From a virus (taxonomy: Duplodnaviria > Heunggongvirae > Uroviricota > Caudoviricetes), in IMG/VR virus record IMGVR_UViG_2541047752_000002: 39,757 nucleotides of DNA. One strand, given 5' to 3'. Below are positions 4,947 to 37,556 of the stretch, one piece after another. How positions within the stretch are numbered: the first letter of the stretch is position 1; each line of letters begins with the position of its first letter. Under the pieces are notes generated by a model, which saw nothing but the letters and a program-made list of their open reading frames with translations, searched no databases and was not told the origin of the DNA. The translations under genes were made by a program, and so were the position numbers.

Positions 4947-5011
4947 AATAAGTCCTCACTATATAAAGATATTCAGTGATGAGATAAATAATCAGTTTAT
5001 TACGAACGATA

Positions 5012-5374
5012 TTAACGACCTGCTGCGCGGAGTTTTCCGTCAGGTTCACCGGCAAGAGTCAGTAATTGTCCCTGGTCTTCCTGCAGAATAGTCAGGCGAC
5101 CACCGCGATTGACATACATCGGCGTTTCGGTGGTGTCTTCTTCGGAAATTTTCCCGCGGTTAGTCGGGCGAATATATGAGAGTTTGTGTTTGATTTTCAC
5201 ACGGTTCTCATCAAATGGTTCGATTTCCAGGTTGAGTGAGACCTTACCTTTGGTTTTCGTGTTCATCACACCGGAAGCGACTTCACTGAGAACTGCGCCG
5301 ATTTTGGTTTCAAATACGCCGCCGTCCAGCTCCCCGATAAATGCCTGCACATCAGTACTGCGTTCGCTAGCCAT
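5012..5374 (-). CDS. Early-left hypothetical protein (120 aa, YfdP-like)
   Basis: Start assigned to ATG at 5374 preceded by AGGAG 7 nt upstream; the 226-aa track ORF is an upstream run-on into GC-rich non-coding DNA. Confidence 0.6.
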   Translation of the reverse strand: MASERSTDVQAFIGELDGGVFETKIGAVLSEVASGVMNTKTKGKVSLNLEIEPFDENRVKIKHKLSYIRPTNRGKISEEDTTETPMYVNRGGRLTILQEDQGQLLTLAGEPDGKLRAAGR

Positions 5375-5392
5375 TTTGCTGCTCCTCATCAT

Positions 5393-5843
5393 ATCGACCC
5401 TGCAAGGCCGATTAGTTTCTCCACAAAACAGAGAAGAACACCTGTGGTGGCCGCCGCCCGGATGGATTGGGTTATGAGCCCGTCGTCCGGTGATGCTCTT
5501 CTCTGTTTTGTAAAAAGGACGGTACCAGCCGGAAGCAAGGGTACAAGCTGGTACCGCCAGGACTACACACAGCATAAAGTTGTGGTGCCGGGTGCCTCCC
5601 GGTGCCTGGCGAAGGTTGCACACCAGGCGGGTGGGTATCCACAGAAGGTCGACTGTCAGCCTCAACCTTAACCCGCGTGCGCTGAGCCGCATTCACCACA
5701 ACGCTAAGGATTCTCTCTGGTTGAAAATACTTAGCTGTTATGTGCCTGCTTTTAGCCACATCAGGCGAGGTGGACCTGGTTATTCCCCAACAACAAGGAT
5801 TTGGTTAATCTGGATATCCCCAACAACTAGCTGAGTATTCAAC
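5393..5843 (-). other. GC-rich untranslated leader with long inverted repeats (candidate structured RNA element of the leftward early transcript)
   Basis: No ORF with a credible start or Shine-Dalgarno; 16-bp inverted repeat ACAAAACAGAGAAGAA (5423-5440) with its complement (5494-5512); 9-bp stem GGTACCAGC/GCTGGTACC (5521-5555); direct repeat TCCCCAACAAC at 5784 and 5816. Confidence 0.4.
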
Positions 5844-9920: not shown

Positions 9921-10246
9921 TGACGACGTTAACTCAATGCCAGCAGCAGGTGCTGGATATGCTGATTTCTTACCAGAAAGAACGTGGCTTCCCGCCAACC
10001 AATCAGGAGGTGGCAACCATGCTGGGATACCGTTCAGTGAATGCAGCGGTGGAGCATCTTAGAGCACTGGAGAAAAAAGGCGTCATCACGATAAAGCGTG
10101 GCGTGGCCCGTGGTATCACTCTTCATACCGCGGTGAAGGACGACGACAGCGAGGCGGTCGGGATTATCCGCTCACTGCTTGCCGGTGAGGAAAACGCCAG
10201 GCTGCGTGCAGCCCACTGGTTACATGAGAGGGGCCTGAAAGTATGA
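9920..10246 (+). CDS. LexA N-terminal DNA-binding-domain-like protein (no peptidase domain)
   Basis: 108 aa from ATG 9920 (MTTLTQCQQQVLDMLISYQKERGFPPTNQEVATMLGYRSVNAAVEHLRALEKKGVI…) resembles the LexA winged HTH; ends before any S24 domain. Confidence 0.6.
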   Translation: MTTLTQCQQQVLDMLISYQKERGFPPTNQEVATMLGYRSVNAAVEHLRALEKKGVITIKRGVARGITLHTAVKDDDSEAVGIIRSLLAGEENARLRAAHWLHERGLKV

Positions 10247-10632
10247 AGCTAATACTGCCTTTTCCGCCCAGCGTGAACACGTACTGGCGACACCCCAACA
10301 AAGGGGCGTTTGCTGGTAAGAGCCTGATAAGCGCAGCGGGGCGCAAATTCCAGAGCGCGGCGTGTGCAGCAATAGTTGAGCAGTTACGTCGTCTGCCAAA
10401 ACCAACGTCGGCACCTGCTTCAGTGGAGATCGTGTTGTTTCCTCCGGATAACCGGATCCGCGATCTGGACAACTATAACAAGGCGCTGTTTGACGCCCTG
10501 ACCCACGCGGGTGTGTGGGAAGACGACAGTCAGGTGAAAAGAATGCTGGTGGAGTGGGGACCGGTTATCCCGGAAGGGAAGGTCGAGATCACCATCAGTA
10601 AGTACGAGAAAACGGCGGGTGCAGCCGCCTGA
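10243..10632 (+). CDS. rusA: RusA-family Holliday junction resolvase
   Basis: 129-aa ORF with RusA-like pattern (LPFPPSVNTYWRH… DLDNYNKALFDALTHAGVWEDDSQV). Confidence 0.8.
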   Translation: MKLILPFPPSVNTYWRHPNKGAFAGKSLISAAGRKFQSAACAAIVEQLRRLPKPTSAPASVEIVLFPPDNRIRDLDNYNKALFDALTHAGVWEDDSQVKRMLVEWGPVIPEGKVEITISKYEKTAGAAA

Positions 10633-10651
10633 TCAAGAGGAGAAACGAAGT

Positions 10652-11461
10652 ATGAATAATCTGATGGTCATTGATGGTATTGAAGTTCGTCGTGATGCTT
10701 ATGGGCGTTACAGCCTGAACGATCTGCATCGCGCAGCAGTAGCATCTGGTGCAAATGCCAGAACCAAGGAGCCGGGAAAGTTTCTTTCCAGCCAACAAAC
10801 TGTTGAGCTTGTTCATGAATTGACCAACACCCAGAATTTGGGTGTTGACCCGGTGAGTGTGATTCATGGGGGAAATGAACGGGGAACGTATGTCTGCAAG
10901 GAACTGGTGTATGCCTATGCAATGTGGATCAGCCCGTCATTCCATCTGAAGGTGATCCGTACTTTCGATATGGTAACCAGCGCACCGGAAAAATTATCCG
11001 GACAGGCTGCTGACAAGATGCAGGCTGGCGTGATCCTGCTGGACTTTATGCGCCGGGAGTTAAACCTGTCTAACTCTTCAGTGCTTGGTGCCTGTCAGAA
11101 ACTCCAGGAGGCTGTTGGCTTACCGAATCTGGCACCGCGCTATGCCATTGATGCTCCTGCTGATGCACACGATGGCTCAAGTCGCCCGACACTGTCACTG
11201 AGTGCACTGCTGAAACAGTATGGTATCCGCCTGACGGCTAATCAGGCATATCACCAGATGGTGAAGCTGGGGATCGTCGAGCAGCGCGAACGATACAGCC
11301 GTACCGCGATTAACAACATCAAAAAATTCTGGTCGCTGACAGCGAAAGGCTGCATGTTCGGCAAGAACATCACCAGTCCCGCAAATCCGCGCGAGACGCA
11401 GCCGCATTTCTTCGAATCCCGATTCCCTGAGCTGTTAAAGCTGCTCGATACCGTTCATTGA
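10652..11461 (+). CDS. KilA-N domain protein (antirepressor-like)
   Basis: Start at ATG 10652 with GAGGAG Shine-Dalgarno; N-terminal KilA-N-like segment (…YSLNDLHRAAVASGANARTKEPGKFL…). Confidence 0.6.
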   Translation: MNNLMVIDGIEVRRDAYGRYSLNDLHRAAVASGANARTKEPGKFLSSQQTVELVHELTNTQNLGVDPVSVIHGGNERGTYVCKELVYAYAMWISPSFHLKVIRTFDMVTSAPEKLSGQAADKMQAGVILLDFMRRELNLSNSSVLGACQKLQEAVGLPNLAPRYAIDAPADAHDGSSRPTLSLSALLKQYGIRLTANQAYHQMVKLGIVEQRERYSRTAINNIKKFWSLTAKGCMFGKNITSPANPRETQPHFFESRFPELLKLLDTVH

Positions 11462-11462
11462 G

Positions 11463-12458
11463 GTGACCGTGAGAGCACTACTGACCCCTGAAATTGCCCC
11501 GCGTATGGGGATCGTATTGTTCAGGCCAGGTTCAGAGCTGATGCCCCTGTTTATGCAGGGGCGTGTCCTGCTGGAGCCTGAGCCGGAACGTTATTCATCT
11601 TTCGCCAGTGGTGCCGTTCCGGCGGCATCACAACCGCTGGCGGATGATCCTGCCGTTCGGGCCGTGTTCCGCAATGAGGCAGTGATCCGTCGTGCTGGTG
11701 GCGTGGAATGTCTTGAAAGCTGGTTACTTCGTGAAAAGGGCTGTCAGTGGCCTCATTCCGACTGGCACAGTGAGAACATGACCACAATGCGGCACGCTCC
11801 GGGCGCAATCCGTCTGTGCTGGCACTGCGATAACCAGCTGCGTGACCAGTTCACGGAACGGCTGGAATCAATGGCAACGGATAACTGTGCCCGTTGGGTG
11901 TTGTCTGTTGTGCGTCGGGATCTCGGTTTTGATGACAGTCACGTTGTGACAATGCCGGAACTGTGCTGGTGGCTGATTCGTAATGACCTGGCGGATGCCT
12001 TACCGGAAAGTGCAGCCCGTAAGGCACTGAGATTACCGAAGCCTGTTGTGCCGTCTGTCACCCGGGAAAGTGACCTTGTGCCTTCGGTTCCTGCCACCAG
12101 CATCATCCAGGATAAGGCGAAAAAGGTGCTGGCGCTGAAAGTGGATCCGGAGTCGCCGGAGTCTTTTATGTTACGCCCAAAACGTCGCCGCTGGGTTAAT
12201 GAAAAGTACACGCGCTGGGTTAAGACACAGCCGTGTGCATGTTGTGGAAAGCCTGCTGATGATCCCCACCACCTGATAGGTCACGGTCAGGGTGGAATGG
12301 GTACAAAAGCGCATGACCTCTTTGTGTTGCCATTGTGCAGAAAGCATCACGACGAGCTGCATGCGGACACCGTGGCGTTTGAAGAGAAGTATGGTTCCCA
12401 ACTGGAGCTGATTTTTCGATTTATCGATCGCGCGCTGGCAATTGGTGTGCTGGCCTGA
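11463..12458 (+). CDS. DUF968-family protein with C-terminal Cys/His (HNH-like) motif
   Basis: 331-aa ORF; C-terminus …CACCGKPADDPHHLIGHGQGGMGTKAHDLFVLPLCRKHHDELH…; Nin-region position. Confidence 0.6.
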   Translation: MTVRALLTPEIAPRMGIVLFRPGSELMPLFMQGRVLLEPEPERYSSFASGAVPAASQPLADDPAVRAVFRNEAVIRRAGGVECLESWLLREKGCQWPHSDWHSENMTTMRHAPGAIRLCWHCDNQLRDQFTERLESMATDNCARWVLSVVRRDLGFDDSHVVTMPELCWWLIRNDLADALPESAARKALRLPKPVVPSVTRESDLVPSVPATSIIQDKAKKVLALKVDPESPESFMLRPKRRRWVNEKYTRWVKTQPCACCGKPADDPHHLIGHGQGGMGTKAHDLFVLPLCRKHHDELHADTVAFEEKYGSQLELIFRFIDRALAIGVLA

Positions 12459-12475
12459 TTTTGTGGAGAGATTTG

Positions 12476-12829
12476 ATGCGTGATATGTACGAGGTGTTAG
12501 ACCGCTGGGGAGCATGGGCAGCAGCAGATAACAGCGGTGTGGACTGGCAGCCGATAGCGGCTGGTTTCAAGGGGCTTTTACCTCATGGTAAAAAAACACG
12601 CCTTCAGTGTGATGATGATGAAGGCATCATGATAGATAGTTGTGTGGCTAGGTTGCGTAAATATAAGTCAGAAGATTACGAGCTGATAATCGCCCACTTT
12701 GTTATTGGAATTTCGCTCCGTACAATTGCAAAGAAGCGGAAATGTTCTGATGGTACTTTACGTAAAGAATTGATTGGCGCTATAGCTTTCATTGAAGGGG
12801 TAATGTCAATGATTAAATTTTCTGATTAG
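12476..12829 (+). CDS. Late-gene antiterminator Q (QuuD/phage-82-type family)
   Basis: 117 aa from ATG 12476 (MRDMYEVLDRWGAWAAADNSGVDWQPIAAGFKGLL…) resembles remembered QuuD; GGAGAG Shine-Dalgarno; track ORF starts at in-frame TTG 12461. Confidence 0.75.
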   Translation: MRDMYEVLDRWGAWAAADNSGVDWQPIAAGFKGLLPHGKKTRLQCDDDEGIMIDSCVARLRKYKSEDYELIIAHFVIGISLRTIAKKRKCSDGTLRKELIGAIAFIEGVMSMIKFSD

Positions 12830-12834
12830 ATAAA

Positions 12835-12856
12835 AAGGGCGGGGGTTCCCGCCCTT
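12835..12856. terminator. Hairpin between the convergent Q and caspase-like genes (bidirectional terminator candidate)
   Basis: 9-bp perfect stem AAGGGCGGG/CCCGCCCTT with GGTT loop, lying exactly between the two stop codons. Confidence 0.6.
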
Positions 12857-12859
12857 AAT

Positions 12860-13825
12860 TCAGAATCGCCCTTTTATTGCTAAATTACGATAATAAACAC
12901 CTAATGCAGTAAGTCGGCATCCAGTTGAATTTATCGCAGCATAGTACATATGTTCAGTATCAACCGGCTCAACCAGTCCGTGGCGGTTACATTTTTGTAG
13001 ATTTTGAAAAATTGATACATTTTCATCAATCGGTGATTCGGAAGTTGGTTCAAAGCTAGGATCTAAATGGAATACATGTGTAGCTGTTGGGAACCATACG
13101 GGCAATTTGCGAAGAGTATCCAAAGACACTCTTGGTCCTACCTCTCTCAGAACAACAAATCGAGAAACATTTGTTTTAAAGACTGGGCGCTGATCCCACG
13201 CCCCCAATGCTTGATCCACAAAGCTATACAGACTACTTGGAGTAATATAACCTAATATATTAGCTCCTGCGCCATACAAAGCTTCGACCATTAATGAAGT
13301 AAATACTCCACCATCATTAACTTCTTTGGCATACTCATCTCGTCTACATGCAGTAAGGATGGTAGAGCCATCTGCAAGTACAGTTTCTCCTCCTTTTAGC
13401 ATTCTTTCCTGGCCAGCGGCCCCAGCCTGACAGCAGTCGAGAATAATAATTTTATTGCGTATGTTAGTTGCTTTATTAGCCCAAACCATAACATCACTTA
13501 TTCTTATGCCATTACTTGATCTTGGCGAAAAGTCATGTGGAATCAACATTCCTTCATCAATGTTATTATCAAAATATCCATGTCCAGCAAAGTAAAATAA
13601 TGCAACATCACACTCTCCAGAAAAAAGATTCTGAATTTCATATTCAAGGAAATCTTTGTTGAGGGGGGTTGCACTACAGTGTGTAAGTGTTCTAGCCTCG
13701 AAATTAGGCCTCCCATCGGCGTGTCTAGATAATGCTTCTGCCATTTTTGCAGCATCATTTTCACATCCGCTGAGAGCATCTAATTCAGCATACTCATTGA
13801 TCCCAATAAATAGTGCTTTTTTCAT
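12860..13825 (-). CDS. Caspase-like (peptidase C14 family) cysteine protease with C-terminal extension of unknown function
   Basis: 321 aa from ATG 13825; motifs KKALFIGINEY…GCENDAAKMAEAL, His in FYFAGHGY, Cys in IILDCCQAG (intact His/Cys dyad); AGGAG Shine-Dalgarno overlaps the stop of the upstream TIR-like gene; AT-richer than flanking phage genes. Confidence 0.75.
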   Translation of the reverse strand: MKKALFIGINEYAELDALSGCENDAAKMAEALSRHADGRPNFEARTLTHCSATPLNKDFLEYEIQNLFSGECDVALFYFAGHGYFDNNIDEGMLIPHDFSPRSSNGIRISDVMVWANKATNIRNKIIILDCCQAGAAGQERMLKGGETVLADGSTILTACRRDEYAKEVNDGGVFTSLMVEALYGAGANILGYITPSSLYSFVDQALGAWDQRPVFKTNVSRFVVLREVGPRVSLDTLRKLPVWFPTATHVFHLDPSFEPTSESPIDENVSIFQNLQKCNRHGLVEPVDTEHMYYAAINSTGCRLTALGVYYRNLAIKGRF

Positions 13826-13835
13826 ATGGAAGCTC

Positions 13836-14237
13836 CTAAGCCAGCTCACGAATGGCAGAAACGATGCTTTCTGTATTCCACTTGACGATTTTGTGAGCGG
13901 CTTGCTTAACTTTCATAGACGTACGCTCGGAGCCCCAAGGCTCAATGGCAATAATTGGCTTTCTATATTCTTGAGCTATTCGGATCTCTGCATCAATCCA
14001 TTTGCTGTAGCTGGCATATACACCAGCCAAAATAATTACAACACTTGATGGTGCCATTTGTGATCTTATAGCAGAGTAAAGTGCAAAATCATCTTGGGCA
14101 CCAATTATTGGATCAACTCTGGGTACCGAGTAGTTCTTAAAGTTGAAATACCCACGATTCTTGAGAAGAGCCACAAGCTGTTCATAAGTGTTTGAATATT
14201 TCCAAGAGTGACTAATAAATAGATTAAAAGTTCTCAT
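13836..14237 (-). CDS. Minimal TIR-like domain protein (ThsB/DUF1863-like)
   Basis: 133-aa ORF; N-terminal FNLFISHSWKY strand motif and downstream SKWIDAEIRIA with a candidate catalytic Glu; GGAGAG Shine-Dalgarno; translationally coupled to the caspase-like gene. Confidence 0.65.
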   Translation of the reverse strand: MRTFNLFISHSWKYSNTYEQLVALLKNRGYFNFKNYSVPRVDPIIGAQDDFALYSAIRSQMAPSSVVIILAGVYASYSKWIDAEIRIAQEYRKPIIAIEPWGSERTSMKVKQAAHKIVKWNTESIVSAIRELA

Positions 14238-14363
14238 AAACTCTCCATTTTAAGGAAGTGAAGTAAGTACATTCTTCTCTTAGAAATAAAAATATCAAAT
14301 CTATTCACGCGTACGCAAAAAGTATTGTATCGTATTAAGAGTGGTTAGTTCGCCACACAGCTT

Positions 14364-14396
14364 AAAACCCGCCGTCGAGCGGGTTTTGTCGTTTCT
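14364..14396 (+). terminator. Intrinsic terminator upstream of the lysis genes (candidate tR')
   Basis: Hairpin AACCCGC-CGTCGA-GCGGGTT followed by TTGTCGTTTCT. Confidence 0.55.
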
Positions 14397-14538
14397 GGAT
14401 CCGGCTATTTGTTGAGCTTGGTCTATACCGCAGTTATCCATTGGCTCGGCTTCTTTTACGTTTCCGCTTCTGATTTGCGGTTCGTGGTACACCCTCAATT
14501 TGCACCTCCTTTATCGGCGAGGTGAGAGATAACTACAA

Positions 14539-14865
14539 ATGCCTCATAACCCAAATACCTGGCTGGAGTTGGTACAGAGCTGGTGGCGTGGAGACACACC
14601 ACTGGGCGCAGTAATTATGTCGATCGTTATGGCTGGTTTACGTATTGCCTATTTTGGTGGCGGTGGCGGCTGGAAGCGAAAAACGCTCGAGATTTTGCTC
14701 TGTGGCGCTCTGACACTGACCTTTGCATCCGCGCTTGAGTATGTCGGATGGCCTAAATCACTTTCTGTTGCTATTGGTGGTGGGGTGGGGCTGATCGGGG
14801 TCGATGCTATTCGTGGTGCGGCAATGAGAGTAATCGGTAACAAGTTTGGTAGCTCGAAGGAGTAA
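14539..14865 (+). CDS. Holin (lambda S-like, three predicted transmembrane segments)
   Basis: 108-aa ORF with three hydrophobic segments and charged C-terminus, immediately upstream of the endolysin. Confidence 0.75.
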   Translation: MPHNPNTWLELVQSWWRGDTPLGAVIMSIVMAGLRIAYFGGGGGWKRKTLEILLCGALTLTFASALEYVGWPKSLSVAIGGGVGLIGVDAIRGAAMRVIGNKFGSSKE

Positions 14866-14868
14866 TTT

Positions 14869-15345
14869 ATGCAGGAACTAAATCCTCAGCGTAAAGCTTT
14901 CCTTGATATGGTGGCCTGGTCAGAAGGAACGGATAACGGGCGACAACCGACACGTAACCACGGTTATGATGTTATTGTTGGTGGTGAACTGTTCACTGAT
15001 TACTCCGATCACCCTCGCAAACTTGTCACGCTAAACCCCAAACTCAAATCAACAGCCGCCGGACGTTACCAGCTTCTTTCACGCTGGTGGGATGCTTACC
15101 GTAAACAGCTTGGCCTGAAAGATTTTTCTCCAGAAAGCCAGGACGCTGTAGCTCTGCAGCAGATTAAAGAGCGTGGCGCTTTACCGATGATTGACCGCGG
15201 CAATATTCGTCAGGCAATCGACCGTTGCAGCAATATCTGGGCGTCGTTACCTGGTGCAGGTTACGGTCAGTATGAACATAAAATCGGTGACCTGATTGCC
15301 CGATTTAAAGAGGCTGGTGGGGTGGTAAATGAAGTTGAGCTATAA
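14869..15345 (+). CDS. R: Endolysin, lambda R-type lytic transglycosylase
   Basis: 158-aa ORF near-identical to remembered lambda R (…QRKAFLDMVAWSEGTDNGRQPTRNHGYDVIVGGELFTDYSDHPRKLVTLNPKLKST…). Confidence 0.92.
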   Translation: MQELNPQRKAFLDMVAWSEGTDNGRQPTRNHGYDVIVGGELFTDYSDHPRKLVTLNPKLKSTAAGRYQLLSRWWDAYRKQLGLKDFSPESQDAVALQQIKERGALPMIDRGNIRQAIDRCSNIWASLPGAGYGQYEHKIGDLIARFKEAGGVVNEVEL

Positions 15346-15709
15346 GCTGGTTATCGCTGCATTCTTCTTTACTGTCATCGGTTCTTTCATCTGGTCTGCC
15401 AACCACTACTACAGCAAATATCAGCACGAAAAGAAACGTGCTGATGAGGCTGTACAAAATGCTGAATCTGCAACAGCCATTACCCGTAACGTCCTGCAAT
15501 CACTGCAAATCGTCAATACAGTTATAGAGGTTAACCAGCATGCAAAACAGCAGATCGCACTGGAGTCACAGAGAACCCAGAAAGATATCAAAGTGGCTGT
15601 TGCGGATGATGGTTGTGCTGCACGCCTTGTGCCTGCTGCCGCTGCTGAGCGGTTGCGGAAGTACGCGGACAGTTTACGTGAGCACTCCGGCTACAACATT
15701 ACCGACTAG
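15329..15709 (+). CDS. Rz-like inner-membrane spanin
   Basis: 126-aa ORF overlapping the endolysin 3' end; N-terminal transmembrane helix then coiled-coil-like periplasmic region. Confidence 0.7.
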   Translation: MKLSYKLVIAAFFFTVIGSFIWSANHYYSKYQHEKKRADEAVQNAESATAITRNVLQSLQIVNTVIEVNQHAKQQIALESQRTQKDIKVAVADDGCAARLVPAAAAERLRKYADSLREHSGYNITD

Positions 15710-15863
15710 TCTGACTTCTGAAACACCTGTACCGTTCATACCAAATCCTCTGACTTATGGTGCCAGCCTGGAGCTGAATGTGAGTCTGTTGTCTGCACTG
15801 GCTAACTGCAATCGGGATAAAGCTGATATTCGTAAAATAGATGCAGAGAGAACTAACCATTAA
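15606..15863 (+). CDS. Rz1-like outer-membrane lipoprotein spanin (overlapping Rz in +1 frame)
   Basis: Signal peptide with lipobox (MMVVLHALCLLPLLSGC) followed by proline-rich mature region; overlaps the Rz 3' end. Confidence 0.6.
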   Translation: MMVVLHALCLLPLLSGCGSTRTVYVSTPATTLPTSLTSETPVPFIPNPLTYGASLELNVSLLSALANCNRDKADIRKIDAERTNH

Positions 15864-15875
15864 GCAATAAAATTG

Positions 15876-16511
15876 TCAAATTAATAAGTTGTCAAATGAA
15901 TATACGTTAAAGGTATATGTCGACATAATTTCACCAAGTACCTCAATACATATACTTTTTTTATGAAAGATACTGGGGAAGGAACTTAGCTCTTCAAGGC
16001 ATTGCACATAAGTGCTGATATCACTTGCATCACGTTCAAGGAATTTCACTTGGCCAAAAGAAGGAGTATTAATCCTAGTTCTTTGCTGGATTATATGGAT
16101 AAAATGTGTAGTTGGTGAAACTATTACTCTTGAAATATCGGAAATGATGTCTTCTTGAACTTGCCGATAAAGTAAATCCTTTGGGTAATGGTGTTTGATC
16201 TCGATGGTTGCAACATTGCCATTATGTTCAGACGTTAATATCGACTGGTTATAAAGTGATATGTCAACAGCGCCGATACCGAGTTTTGGATGCTCACTTA
16301 AAGCAGTTAGTGTGCTGATTTGATTGAGAATAACAACTAACTCATCACGTATTTGAGTTTCATGTTTGCGATTGTAGAAGTAGCAATTCAGTTCATTTAA
16401 CTTTTTATGCATCCTATCGTGACTAATTGCTTCGATCAGTAAATCCTGAATCATACTTTTCTCTAGGTAATCCGAACGGTTGTAAGTGACAGTATTGTGC
16501 TGGCATGTCAT
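15876..16511 (-). CDS. Hypothetical protein (211 aa), possible PD-(D/E)xK-like motif; AT-rich moron
   Basis: ORF on the strand opposite to the surrounding late genes; segment …GAVDISLYNQSILTSEHNGNVATIEIKHH… fits a D…E-x-K spacing (weak inference). Confidence 0.5.
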   Translation of the reverse strand: MTCQHNTVTYNRSDYLEKSMIQDLLIEAISHDRMHKKLNELNCYFYNRKHETQIRDELVVILNQISTLTALSEHPKLGIGAVDISLYNQSILTSEHNGNVATIEIKHHYPKDLLYRQVQEDIISDISRVIVSPTTHFIHIIQQRTRINTPSFGQVKFLERDASDISTYVQCLEELSSFPSIFHKKSICIEVLGEIMSTYTFNVYSFDNLLI

Positions 16512-16554
16512 TAGTATGTAAAGGTATTGTGAATGCCAGCAAGATAACGAAGTA

Positions 16555-16908
16555 TCATCGATAGAAAAACTTTACGGCCCACTCGTAAACCGCTTTGTAA
16601 ATCGGTTCATGGTAAATACTATCGATACTATTCAGATGTGCGATCATCGCCTCCACAGTTGTAGTGGTTGTTTCTAATATTTCGATTATTGCAGGGCGGT
16701 CATCATCTTCATCGAAGTATTCGAACAGCAGTACAGGTTTACCATGCCATTCAGCATCTGAGACTCTAAGGTTACAACTACCGCTCAACTCAAAGTGAAT
16801 TTTGTAATTACCTTCTACAGAATGGCCTACGGGGAAAAAGCATAGGGTGTCATCTTTGTTTAAAAGCCATTCCAATTCATAACTATTCATTTGTGAACTC
16901 CTGTTCAT
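16555..16908 (-). CDS. Hypothetical acidic protein (117 aa) upstream of the 211-aa ORF
   Basis: Co-oriented with the 211-aa ORF, 43-bp gap; acidic stretch FEYFDEDDDRPAIIEILETTTTT; no recognisable domain. Confidence 0.5.
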   Translation of the reverse strand: MNRSSQMNSYELEWLLNKDDTLCFFPVGHSVEGNYKIHFELSGSCNLRVSDAEWHGKPVLLFEYFDEDDDRPAIIEILETTTTTVEAMIAHLNSIDSIYHEPIYKAVYEWAVKFFYR

Positions 16909-17040
16909 TGAGTTTCAACAACTATCAACTACATCCAGCGAAGCATAAAAGATCGTTTATGGCAAAACCGGAGTGGAGTGCGATTCGATTCTGAGAAGGA
17001 TGCCACGTATCGCACGCGAACCATCCAAGAGGATTATGCA

Positions 17041-36098: not shown

Positions 36099-37556
36099 TT
36101 ATTTGACGTAAATGTGGTTTCTGTATTTGACAAAAATCACATCACACACGCTTTCAATATCTTCAGGTTGACCATAAATTTTCTTCACAATATTCAATTG
36201 TTCTTTATTCTCAAGAATAAAGAAATTATTTCCTTTGTTATACCATTCGCTATTTGTAAGCCAGTTATCTCTTTTTATTTCATTGTTATTAAAAAGTATA
36301 TTTGCTATTTTTATGTCTCCATTCACACCAACAGAGTTAGTAAATGTGAAAGGGGCATATCCATAATTTGCTTTGTGCTCGTTGATTTTTTCTCTAATAC
36401 ATGACATCTGATTGTATCTATTATCAGTGGAGCCATTAATATTTATTGTTTTAATTCCTGATATTATACCCAAAAAAGCTATTAATAAAATAATGCTTTT
36501 TTTATTAAATTTAGATCTTGACAAAAGAATTACTGCCATAATGAAGACGGGAACAAGGTATCTTATTGTCCATATATTTCTTGGGAGGTTACTACCAATA
36601 TAAGCAGATGTCATGATTAAAATAGACAATGACAAACATATATCAATAACGCTTCTGTTTTTAAAAAGATTTCTGAAAGTGAAGTAAATTAATGCAACAA
36701 CACCAGCAAAGCGTATTGCTTTAGATAATAGATGCAGTGATGGTGTTATTTGCTCACCAAATATGTTTGCATTAAAAAACAATAAAGTTCCGCTTACTGC
36801 AGTATTTATATTAACTAAAATATTGTCATACTCAACAATCTTTACATCTGTTAGTCCTGGCAATGTAAAGCTTCCAAGGTTTAAAAACAAAAAACCGATC
36901 GCCTTGGAAATTAAATATGAAGAAAACAATCCAGCCATTATAATAAGGTATTTCTTTTTTCTTTCCTTGTGCAACAAAAATATTGCTGCTAATGTTAGCG
37001 GTGCAACGTATATATAGACTGAGATATTATCGCTAAAAATAGCCATAGAGGATAGTATGGTTGAAAAGTATACAAATAATATATTTTCTGTTTTAATATA
37101 CTTTTCTGTAAATATTAAGCATCCAATGATAAATATGTATGTACCCATGTGAATGCACGCTGAAAGCATTGATGTAACAGCCATGTCAGCAGGGAAAACA
37201 AAGTAGAATATAATTAGCGCTAATGCTAATGATTTATTTGTAGACAGCCTGTATATCAAAAATATCACAGTAGCATACATCGCTGGTGGTATTATATATG
37301 CAAGCTCACTGCTGTAGCCAAATAATATAGAGGCGATCGCATAAAAAGATACTTCTGTAAAGTAAAAAGGAACCGTGGATAGCATCCATCCATGAAGTAA
37401 GTAATTACCTTCTGACATATCCTTACCAAGCAAAAGCACTGTTGCCGCATCTGTATTTGGTGGGAATATGTTTAAGCTGGCAAAGTGATATAGCATAAAC
37501 AATGACGCAAATAATAAAATCACGAATATAAATTTAATTTGTTTTTTGAAAATCAT
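36099..37556 (-). CDS. Serotype-specific O-antigen glucosyltransferase (Gtr type, polytopic membrane protein)
   Basis: 485-aa very hydrophobic AT-rich ORF immediately downstream of gtrA-gtrB. Confidence 0.75.
   Translation of the reverse strand: MIFKKQIKFIFVILLFASLFMLYHFASLNIFPPNTDAATVLLLGKDMSEGNYLLHGWMLSTVPFYFTEVSFYAIASILFGYSSELAYIIPPAMYATVIFLIYRLSTNKSLALALIIFYFVFPADMAVTSMLSACIHMGTYIFIIGCLIFTEKYIKTENILFVYFSTILSSMAIFSDNISVYIYVAPLTLAAIFLLHKERKKKYLIIMAGLFSSYLISKAIGFLFLNLGSFTLPGLTDVKIVEYDNILVNINTAVSGTLLFFNANIFGEQITPSLHLLSKAIRFAGVVALIYFTFRNLFKNRSVIDICLSLSILIMTSAYIGSNLPRNIWTIRYLVPVFIMAVILLSRSKFNKKSIILLIAFLGIISGIKTININGSTDNRYNQMSCIREKINEHKANYGYAPFTFTNSVGVNGDIKIANILFNNNEIKRDNWLTNSEWYNKGNNFFILENKEQLNIVKKIYGQPEDIESVCDVIFVKYRNHIYVK

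Follow-up and report, generated by a model that had tools for sequence, protein, structure and literature searches.

Background

Thoeris systems of different types follow the same outline, in which a ThsB-type TIR protein produces a NAD-derived messenger on infection, the messenger acts on a separate effector, and the outcome is abortive infection. In other Thoeris the effector is a NADase or a pore and the signal is 3'cADPR or His-ADPR, whereas in type IV Thoeris the effector is a C14 protease and the signal is N7-cADPR; moreover, unlike other Thoeris, type IV is not blocked by the Tad1 and Tad2 sponges. Type IV Thoeris joins TIR signalling to caspase-type cell death in bacteria and mirrors animal innate immunity.

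Operons from Escherichia coli 328 and from Pseudomonas lowered the infectivity of T6 (Rousset et al., bioRxiv 10.1101/2024.10.24.620036; Science 387:510, 2025). Because induction of the E. coli operon was slightly toxic, most of the biochemistry was done on PsCaspase, the Pseudomonas protease. Filtered metabolites from T6-infected cells carrying the TIR alone activated PsCaspase, the signal from EcTIR being stronger than that from PsTIR, and N7-cADPR, which is not sequestered by Tad1 or Tad2, was purified from infected EcTIR-expressing cells and identified as the signal (bioRxiv 10.1101/2024.10.24.620036). Since EcTIR metabolites activate PsCaspase, the signal is common to the E. coli and the Pseudomonas sp. 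1-7 systems. Activated PsCaspase is promiscuous and arginine-specific, and EF-Tu and RplE are among the many proteins that it cuts after an arginine; defence was lost in PsTIR E79Q and in PsCaspase C129A, and infection at high multiplicity killed the culture, which indicates abortive infection (bioRxiv 10.1101/2024.10.24.620036). As an unproven hypothesis, the authors propose that the signal is bound, in a dimer, by the protease's C-terminal domain (bioRxiv 10.1101/2024.10.24.620036).

More recently, a clone of the E. coli system that included the native promoter was found to protect against T2 and T6 (Chen et al. 2026, Nat Commun, PMC13243611). T4 escapes through Vs.3 (TadIV-1), a sponge for N7-cADPR. 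T6 escapes when its capsid vertex protein carries A380V, a change that abolishes signal production; by itself, the capsid vertex protein does not trigger the system (PMC13243611).

The window studied here is the whole of a 39,757-nt stretch of viral DNA (IMG/VR record IMGVR_UViG_2541047752_000002). A reading of the sequence by itself, referred to below as the original prediction, had proposed that two genes next to the lysis genes encode a TIR-like signal generator and a caspase-like protease effector.

The cassette between Q and the holin gene

A complete prophage makes up the window, with ybhC (1-1284) on one side and a PEBP-family gene (39281 onward, to 39757) on the other; its genes include those for a lambda-type integrase (1419-2489), an HK97-type head and a contractile tail. 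Both an ORF scan and a read of the minus strand find exactly two intact genes, both minus-strand, in the interval between the gene for the antiterminator Q (12476..12829, plus strand; Pfam Phage_antitermQ 1.6e-42, and RefSeq annotation in UMNK88) and the holin gene. The upstream one encodes EcTIR, a ThsB-type TIR protein of 133 aa (13836..14237), a call drawn from the ORF, Pfam, PADLOC, the published EcTIR and RefSeq; it reads from 14237 to 13836, with the stop TAG at 13838-13836. The downstream one encodes EcCaspase, a C14 protease of 321 aa (12860..13825), called from the ORF, Pfam, PADLOC, Foldseek, Pseudomonas homologues and RefSeq. Its ORF runs from an ATG at 13825 to 12860, the longest alternative start being a GTG at 13849; the RefSeq annotation likewise uses the 321-aa form and not the GTG-started one. 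RefSeq names the two products 'TIR domain-containing protein' (WP_001258750.1) and 'caspase family protein' (WP_000709408.1).

The junction of the two genes reads GCT-TAG-GAGCTTCCAT-ATG, a gap of 10 nt on the same strand, and the AGGAG Shine-Dalgarno sequence of the protease gene (13833..13837, minus strand), 7 nt before its ATG, overlaps the TIR stop codon, so that translational coupling of the pair is plausible from the layout. The TIR gene itself is preceded by a GGAGAG Shine-Dalgarno sequence, read directly from the DNA, at 14241..14246 (minus strand), 3 nt before its ATG. Further upstream, a TTGATA and an AAGAAT box separated by a 16-nt spacer (14271..14298, minus strand) form a candidate sigma-70 promoter for the operon, and this may be the native one; the match to consensus is weak (9/12), and with 3 sites found by the promoter scan against 5.8 in shuffled sequence it is not significant by itself. 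At the other end, the operon is closed by an intrinsic terminator hairpin found by a terminator scan (12835..12856, minus strand; 9 bp, 7 of them G-C pairs), which lies between the Q and protease stops, starts 5 nt past the Q stop codon (12829, Q being on the opposite strand) and has a good T-run on the minus strand only. The GC content of the cassette (12860-14237) is 40.1%, against 53.0% for 10000-12829 and 43.9% for 14301-17000.

These results bear out the physical description in the original prediction, namely two minus-strand genes with a 10-nt gap and a TAG overlapping the AGGAG, a real hairpin between the protease and Q stops, and a composition richer in AT than the flanks. One part of it was drawn too widely. 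The cassette is indeed opposite to Q and the lysis genes, but not to every neighbouring phage gene, as a second minus-strand pair is found at 15876-16908.

The TIR protein and the protease

The 133-aa protein matches Pfam ThsB_TIR at an E-value of 3.9e-18 (66.1 bits against a cutoff of 21.2) and the ThsB model of PADLOC at 2e-12, and domain searches find no further domain in it beyond the ThsB-type one. Among solved structures the closest by sequence is MTH538 (1.3e-05). Across 69 homologues of the upstream TIR, the motifs F7-I8-S9-H10-S11-W12 and S78-K79-W80-I81-x-x-E84-I85 are invariant. Because S78-K79-W80-I81 and E84-I85 are invariant in the EcTIR family, E84 is presumed, and is likely, to be the catalytic Glu; it is the very residue in SKWIDAEI that had been marked as a possible catalytic Glu. 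Its equivalence to PsTIR E79 rests on the motif and not on an alignment, because pairwise BLASTP similarity between EcTIR and PsTIR is absent, though both match Pfam ThsB_TIR.

The 321-aa protease matches Pfam Peptidase_C14 over residues 2-188 (E 1.2e-17, 65 bits against a cutoff of 21.4) and the PADLOC caspase model at 1.6e-19, while its C-terminal 133 aa are without a Pfam match and correspond to the extension of about 130 aa that had been noticed in the sequence. The TIR-like and caspase-like calls were thus both upheld by Pfam and by PADLOC. Of the other profiles that the original prediction had named, TIR_2 reached only a sub-threshold 20.6 bits with the TIR protein, and CHAT was rejected as an identity for the protease because such Pfam matches were absent. 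The EACC1-associated caspase subfamily was set aside as well; against NCBIfam NF047832 the protease scores 89.5 bits, below the curated cutoff of 140 bits, so that it has only a related protease domain. In PHROGs, the TIR and the protease belong over their full length to families without annotated function, phrog_6988 and phrog_18397.

A sequence search against solved structures matched the protease only to the Trypanosoma brucei metacaspase MCA2, over the N-terminal 80 residues at E 0.0056, and such searches brought up no structure of a type IV Thoeris system. The AlphaFold2 model of the full-length protease has a mean pLDDT of 72 and, when compared with the PDB by Foldseek, gives a probability of 1.00 to MALT1, metacaspases and caspases-1, -4, -9 and -11, which places the caspase fold predicted for it on structural grounds; the matches are to generic caspases, paracaspases and metacaspases only. 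With these proteins (MEROPS clan CD, family C14) the protease shares the fold of residues 1-190 and the AGHG and DCCQAG dyad motifs, and arginine P1 specificity, shown for PsCaspase, is common to metacaspases, paracaspases and PsCaspase. However, identity to them is only 12-23%, the C-terminal domain is unrelated, and activation in type IV Thoeris is by a nucleotide-derived ligand instead of the scaffold oligomerisation or Ca2+ of the eukaryotic relatives.

The protease, which has the effector role, consists of a C14 core (2-188), a conserved linker and a compact C-terminal domain (about 231-321). The invariant residues in a 29-sequence alignment include H82, D130, C131 and C132, and H82 together with C131/C132 would be the likely catalytic residues. 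The same alignment shows an invariant motif in the linker (W210-Q212-R213-P214-F216-K217-T218) and invariant residues in the C-terminal domain (Q277, C279, R281, H282, C303 and R304). The model is confident for the N-terminal core and for residues 231-321 but not for residues 185-230 (pLDDT below 50). The linker combines low model confidence with a motif that is among the best conserved in the family; it may become ordered only upon dimerisation or ligand binding.

When the C-terminal domain was modelled alone, its pLDDT was 78, and Foldseek returned no structural match at E <= 0.001. A winged-helix or MarR-like fold was considered, but the best matches were weak (E 0.068, TM about 0.4) and no fold is assigned. 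The idea in the original prediction that the effector is activated through its C-terminal extension agrees with the proposal of Rousset et al., who suggest a ligand sensor there as a hypothesis without proof; the C-terminal domain may have the same role here.

Assignment to type IV Thoeris

The Methods of Rousset et al. detect the TIR protein of type IV Thoeris by a match to PF08937 (ThsB_TIR) or PF13676 (TIR_2), and in the window the match is to ThsB_TIR. The second component, a protease of the PsCaspase family, is recognized here by proxy, from the C14 core and the full-length identity to Pseudomonas proteins. Adjacent genes with at most one between them are expected, and here a 10-nt gap is all that separates the two. 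The catalytic Glu and Cys/His are probably represented by E84 (69 homologues) and by H82 and C131/C132 (29 homologues). Identity to an experimentally validated member extends over the TIR gene, which, in a nucleotide comparison with the published E. coli 328 operon that covered the whole TIR coding sequence, is identical to published EcTIR at 399/399 nt (window 13839-14237, minus strand). There is strong indirect reason to equate the protease half with published EcCaspase as well, given that the operon is contiguous and that the pair hardly varies within E. coli.

[quoted passage not shown] A ThsA with SIR2-SLOG or Macro/transmembrane domains is absent, the second gene being a C14 protease; SIR2, SLOG and Macro gave no match in the protease, and the Q-holin interval holds only the two genes. 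PADLOC 2.0.0 reports only ThsB and a generic caspase because that release predates type IV Thoeris.

The TIR-caspase pair is therefore already known, down to the nucleotide for the TIR gene. The TIR gene in the window is the one that led to the discovery of N7-cADPR, so that the window adds no new system; the Thoeris variant to which the original prediction had pointed is type IV Thoeris, and the novelty that it implied falls away. It shares with the E. coli 328 system the TIR gene, the order of TIR then protease, and the species, and over the compared part, the TIR gene, no difference is detectable. What is described here beyond the E. coli 328 report is the genomic setting, a prophage at the ybhC site and the slot between Q and the holin gene, along with the likely catalytic residues. 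Defence, infection-dependent production of the signal and the chemistry of the signal are published for the identical TIR sequence, and promiscuous arginine-specific cleavage and the loss of function in catalytic Cys and Glu mutants for the Pseudomonas homologue only.

With the comparison to the published clone covering the TIR gene, we consider it almost certain that the operon is a functional type IV Thoeris that works as published. In a lysogen, the operon would have a promoter of its own and be expressed in antisense orientation to the phage genes. Infection by a sensitive phage such as T2 or T6 would activate the single-domain TIR, by a route that depends on the capsid vertex protein of the phage, and the active TIR would convert NAD+ to N7-cADPR. 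This signal would activate the caspase-like protease, probably through the C-terminal domain in a dimer, and the protease would cut many cellular proteins after arginine, EF-Tu and ribosomal proteins among them. The infected cell would then no longer support phage replication, and the population would be protected by abortive infection. The division of labour in the original prediction, with the TIR as signal generator and the caspase-like protein as effector, matches the published mechanism and was essentially right, given that mechanism, the roughly 60% identity to Pseudomonas proteins, and the pairing of the genes in 68/72 loci.

It can also be imagined that the wiring is reversed, such that the protease senses infection and activates the TIR by cleavage, which then, as an NADase effector like SARM1, kills by NAD+ depletion. 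NADase activity makes many bacterial TIR domains effectors, and the TIR in the window is without a recognisable sensor domain. Nevertheless, a small-molecule filtrate from cells with the TIR alone activates the protease, by which the reverse order is largely refuted, and we give it almost no credence. A role in lysogenic conversion or virulence, for example as a TcpC-like TIR directed against Toll-like receptor signalling of the host with the protease as an accessory, could be argued from the other conversion genes of the prophage (gtrA/gtrB, for O-antigen modification), from the finding of the cassette in clinical and porcine ETEC isolates, and from the existence of TIR virulence factors in uropathogenic E. 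coli. Such cargo is extremely improbable, as domain searches find the TIR to be a minimal 133-aa ThsB-type domain and nothing else, sister prophages hold recognised anti-phage systems in the same slot, and anti-phage activity is published for the operon of the identical TIR gene.

A different doubt concerns the copy in the window, which could be an unexpressed or decayed passenger, intact in sequence, silent in the lysogen and without a role. The promoter evidence is one weak consensus match, and convergent transcription from Q could disturb expression of the operon. Yet neither ORF is disrupted, 14 genomes have the pair at 99.9% identity or more, the stretch 14200-14545 is identical to UMNK88, and defence was obtained when the E. 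coli system was cloned under its native promoter (PMC13243611), so that a silent copy seems very unlikely.

Conservation and distribution of the gene pair

The protease family is large, with 6579 matches at E <= 1e-5 among the candidates scored, and its conservation extends over the full length. The 319-aa homologues from Pseudomonas show 57-63% identity at 100% coverage, and among them are proteins from the strains URMO17WK12:I11, Root329, Root562 and RIT-PI-r, which are listed as type IV Thoeris strains in Table S1 of Rousset et al. We collected 80 genome loci with relatives of the protease, mostly from Pseudomonas, with others from Clostridium, Sulfuricurvum, Bacteroidota and Bacillota, and 72 of the 80 could be tested, having an ORF of at least 100 aa that ends at the protease start. 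In 68 of these 72, single-pass phmmer found an EcTIR-like gene (49-62% identity) directly upstream, with its end no more than a few bases from the protease start; the neighbourhood check suggested with the original prediction thus came out in its favour.

Most of the Pseudomonas loci (L004-L071) have a second TIR gene, PsTIR-like, just downstream of the protease (about 4960-5450 in locus coordinates), which fits the three-gene entries in Table S1 (Rousset et al.). The E. coli cassette has the upstream EcTIR-like gene only, whereas most related Pseudomonas loci add the downstream PsTIR-like one. The system of Pseudomonas sp. 1-7 (PsTIR and PsCaspase) has the same two-gene architecture of TIR and caspase-like protein as the E. 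coli cassette, and both TIRs match ThsB_TIR; its only TIR gene, however, is PsTIR-like and lies upstream.

In E. coli, the 1378-bp pair is present in 14 of 5426 complete genomes and is at least 99.9% identical in every carrier, clinical and porcine ETEC isolates included. Context was seen for 11 of the 14, and all 11 have the cassette inside related prophage sequence. In the two that were examined in detail, UMNK88 and strain 165, it occupies the same Q-holin slot, in prophages integrated at tRNA-Thr next to proA. The identity of 14200-14545 to UMNK88 covers 346 nt, from inside the 5' end of the TIR gene through the upstream region to the holin start. The ybhC integration module and the cassette do not occur together in any complete genome of the collection, which points to module shuffling. 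Among deposited phage genomes, megablast found none with the cassette, the matches to SfII, SfIV and Stx2 phages being to the flanks only.

A variable slot for defence cargo

On the right, the slot is bordered by a conserved segment before the holin gene (14305..14538, plus strand), as found by an alignment of five phages and prophages with four different cargos and by a terminator scan. Within it, an invariant terminator hairpin (14363-14388) is present in all related phages examined, and the segment is presumed to be the Q-responsive late promoter/terminator unit. Between the borders, the contents vary. A 97%-identical ybhC prophage in strain 2021CK-01784 has instead two minus-strand genes that match DS1_1 and DS1_2, NCBIfam equivalogs with the name "anti-phage protein"; the Shigella phage SfII has the PADLOC candidate PDC-M53A/B; and SfIV has a transposase and two uncharacterised minus-strand genes (gp48/gp49). 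In own coordinates, the slot spans 12830-14304 in the window, 13612-16004 in L084, 832-2446 in L002 and 926-2845 in L003. In every slot compared, the cargo other than the transposase is on the minus strand and is followed by the same conserved segment.

As judged from these alignments, defence cargos are swapped in and out of a hotspot of this phage lineage, the Q-holin interval, where no fewer than three recognised or candidate systems occur, along with one uncharacterised pair; our literature search found no description of this slot as a defence hotspot. Type IV Thoeris is one of these cargos, a moron carried by SfII-like serotype-converting prophages in their Q-holin slot. In lambdoid phages, Q acts in trans on RNA polymerase at the late promoter/terminator site, and a cassette between the Q gene and that site is therefore unproblematic. 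The separation of Q from the late terminator had been called unusual in the original prediction, but every related phage examined has a cassette there, so that on the genomes compared this position is the norm in the lineage and not an oddity.

With respect to the early/Q transcript the cassette is convergent, and with respect to the conserved late promoter segment it is divergent. It could be envisioned that this placement works as a lysogeny-only switch and that the fixed cargo orientation reflects a design rule of the hotspot, though we consider this improbable. If it were true, read-through past the weak plus-strand side of the hairpin on induction would silence the operon by antisense transcription, the prophage would avoid triggering its own abortive-infection system, and the fixed orientation of the DS-1, PDC-M53 and SfIV-pair cargos would be a general rule for the hotspot.

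Other islands in the prophage

The minus-strand pair at 15876-16908 belongs to another AT-rich island (GC 0.34-0.40), which is bordered by Rz1 and the HNH/terminase genes and is also found in UMNK88 and strain 165. Its two antisense ORFs, of 211 aa (phrog_12494) and 117 aa (phrog_14397), had no Pfam, PADLOC or NCBIfam match, and the island is a candidate moron. Both this downstream antisense island and the Q-holin slot could be mined for new defence genes. The right end of the prophage is adjoined by a minus-strand cluster at 36099-38832, which consists of gtrA (GtrA_DPMS_TM), gtrB (Glycos_transf_2) and a third gene of 485 aa without a Pfam match, an O-antigen glucosylation (serotype-conversion) module like those of SfII and SfIV.
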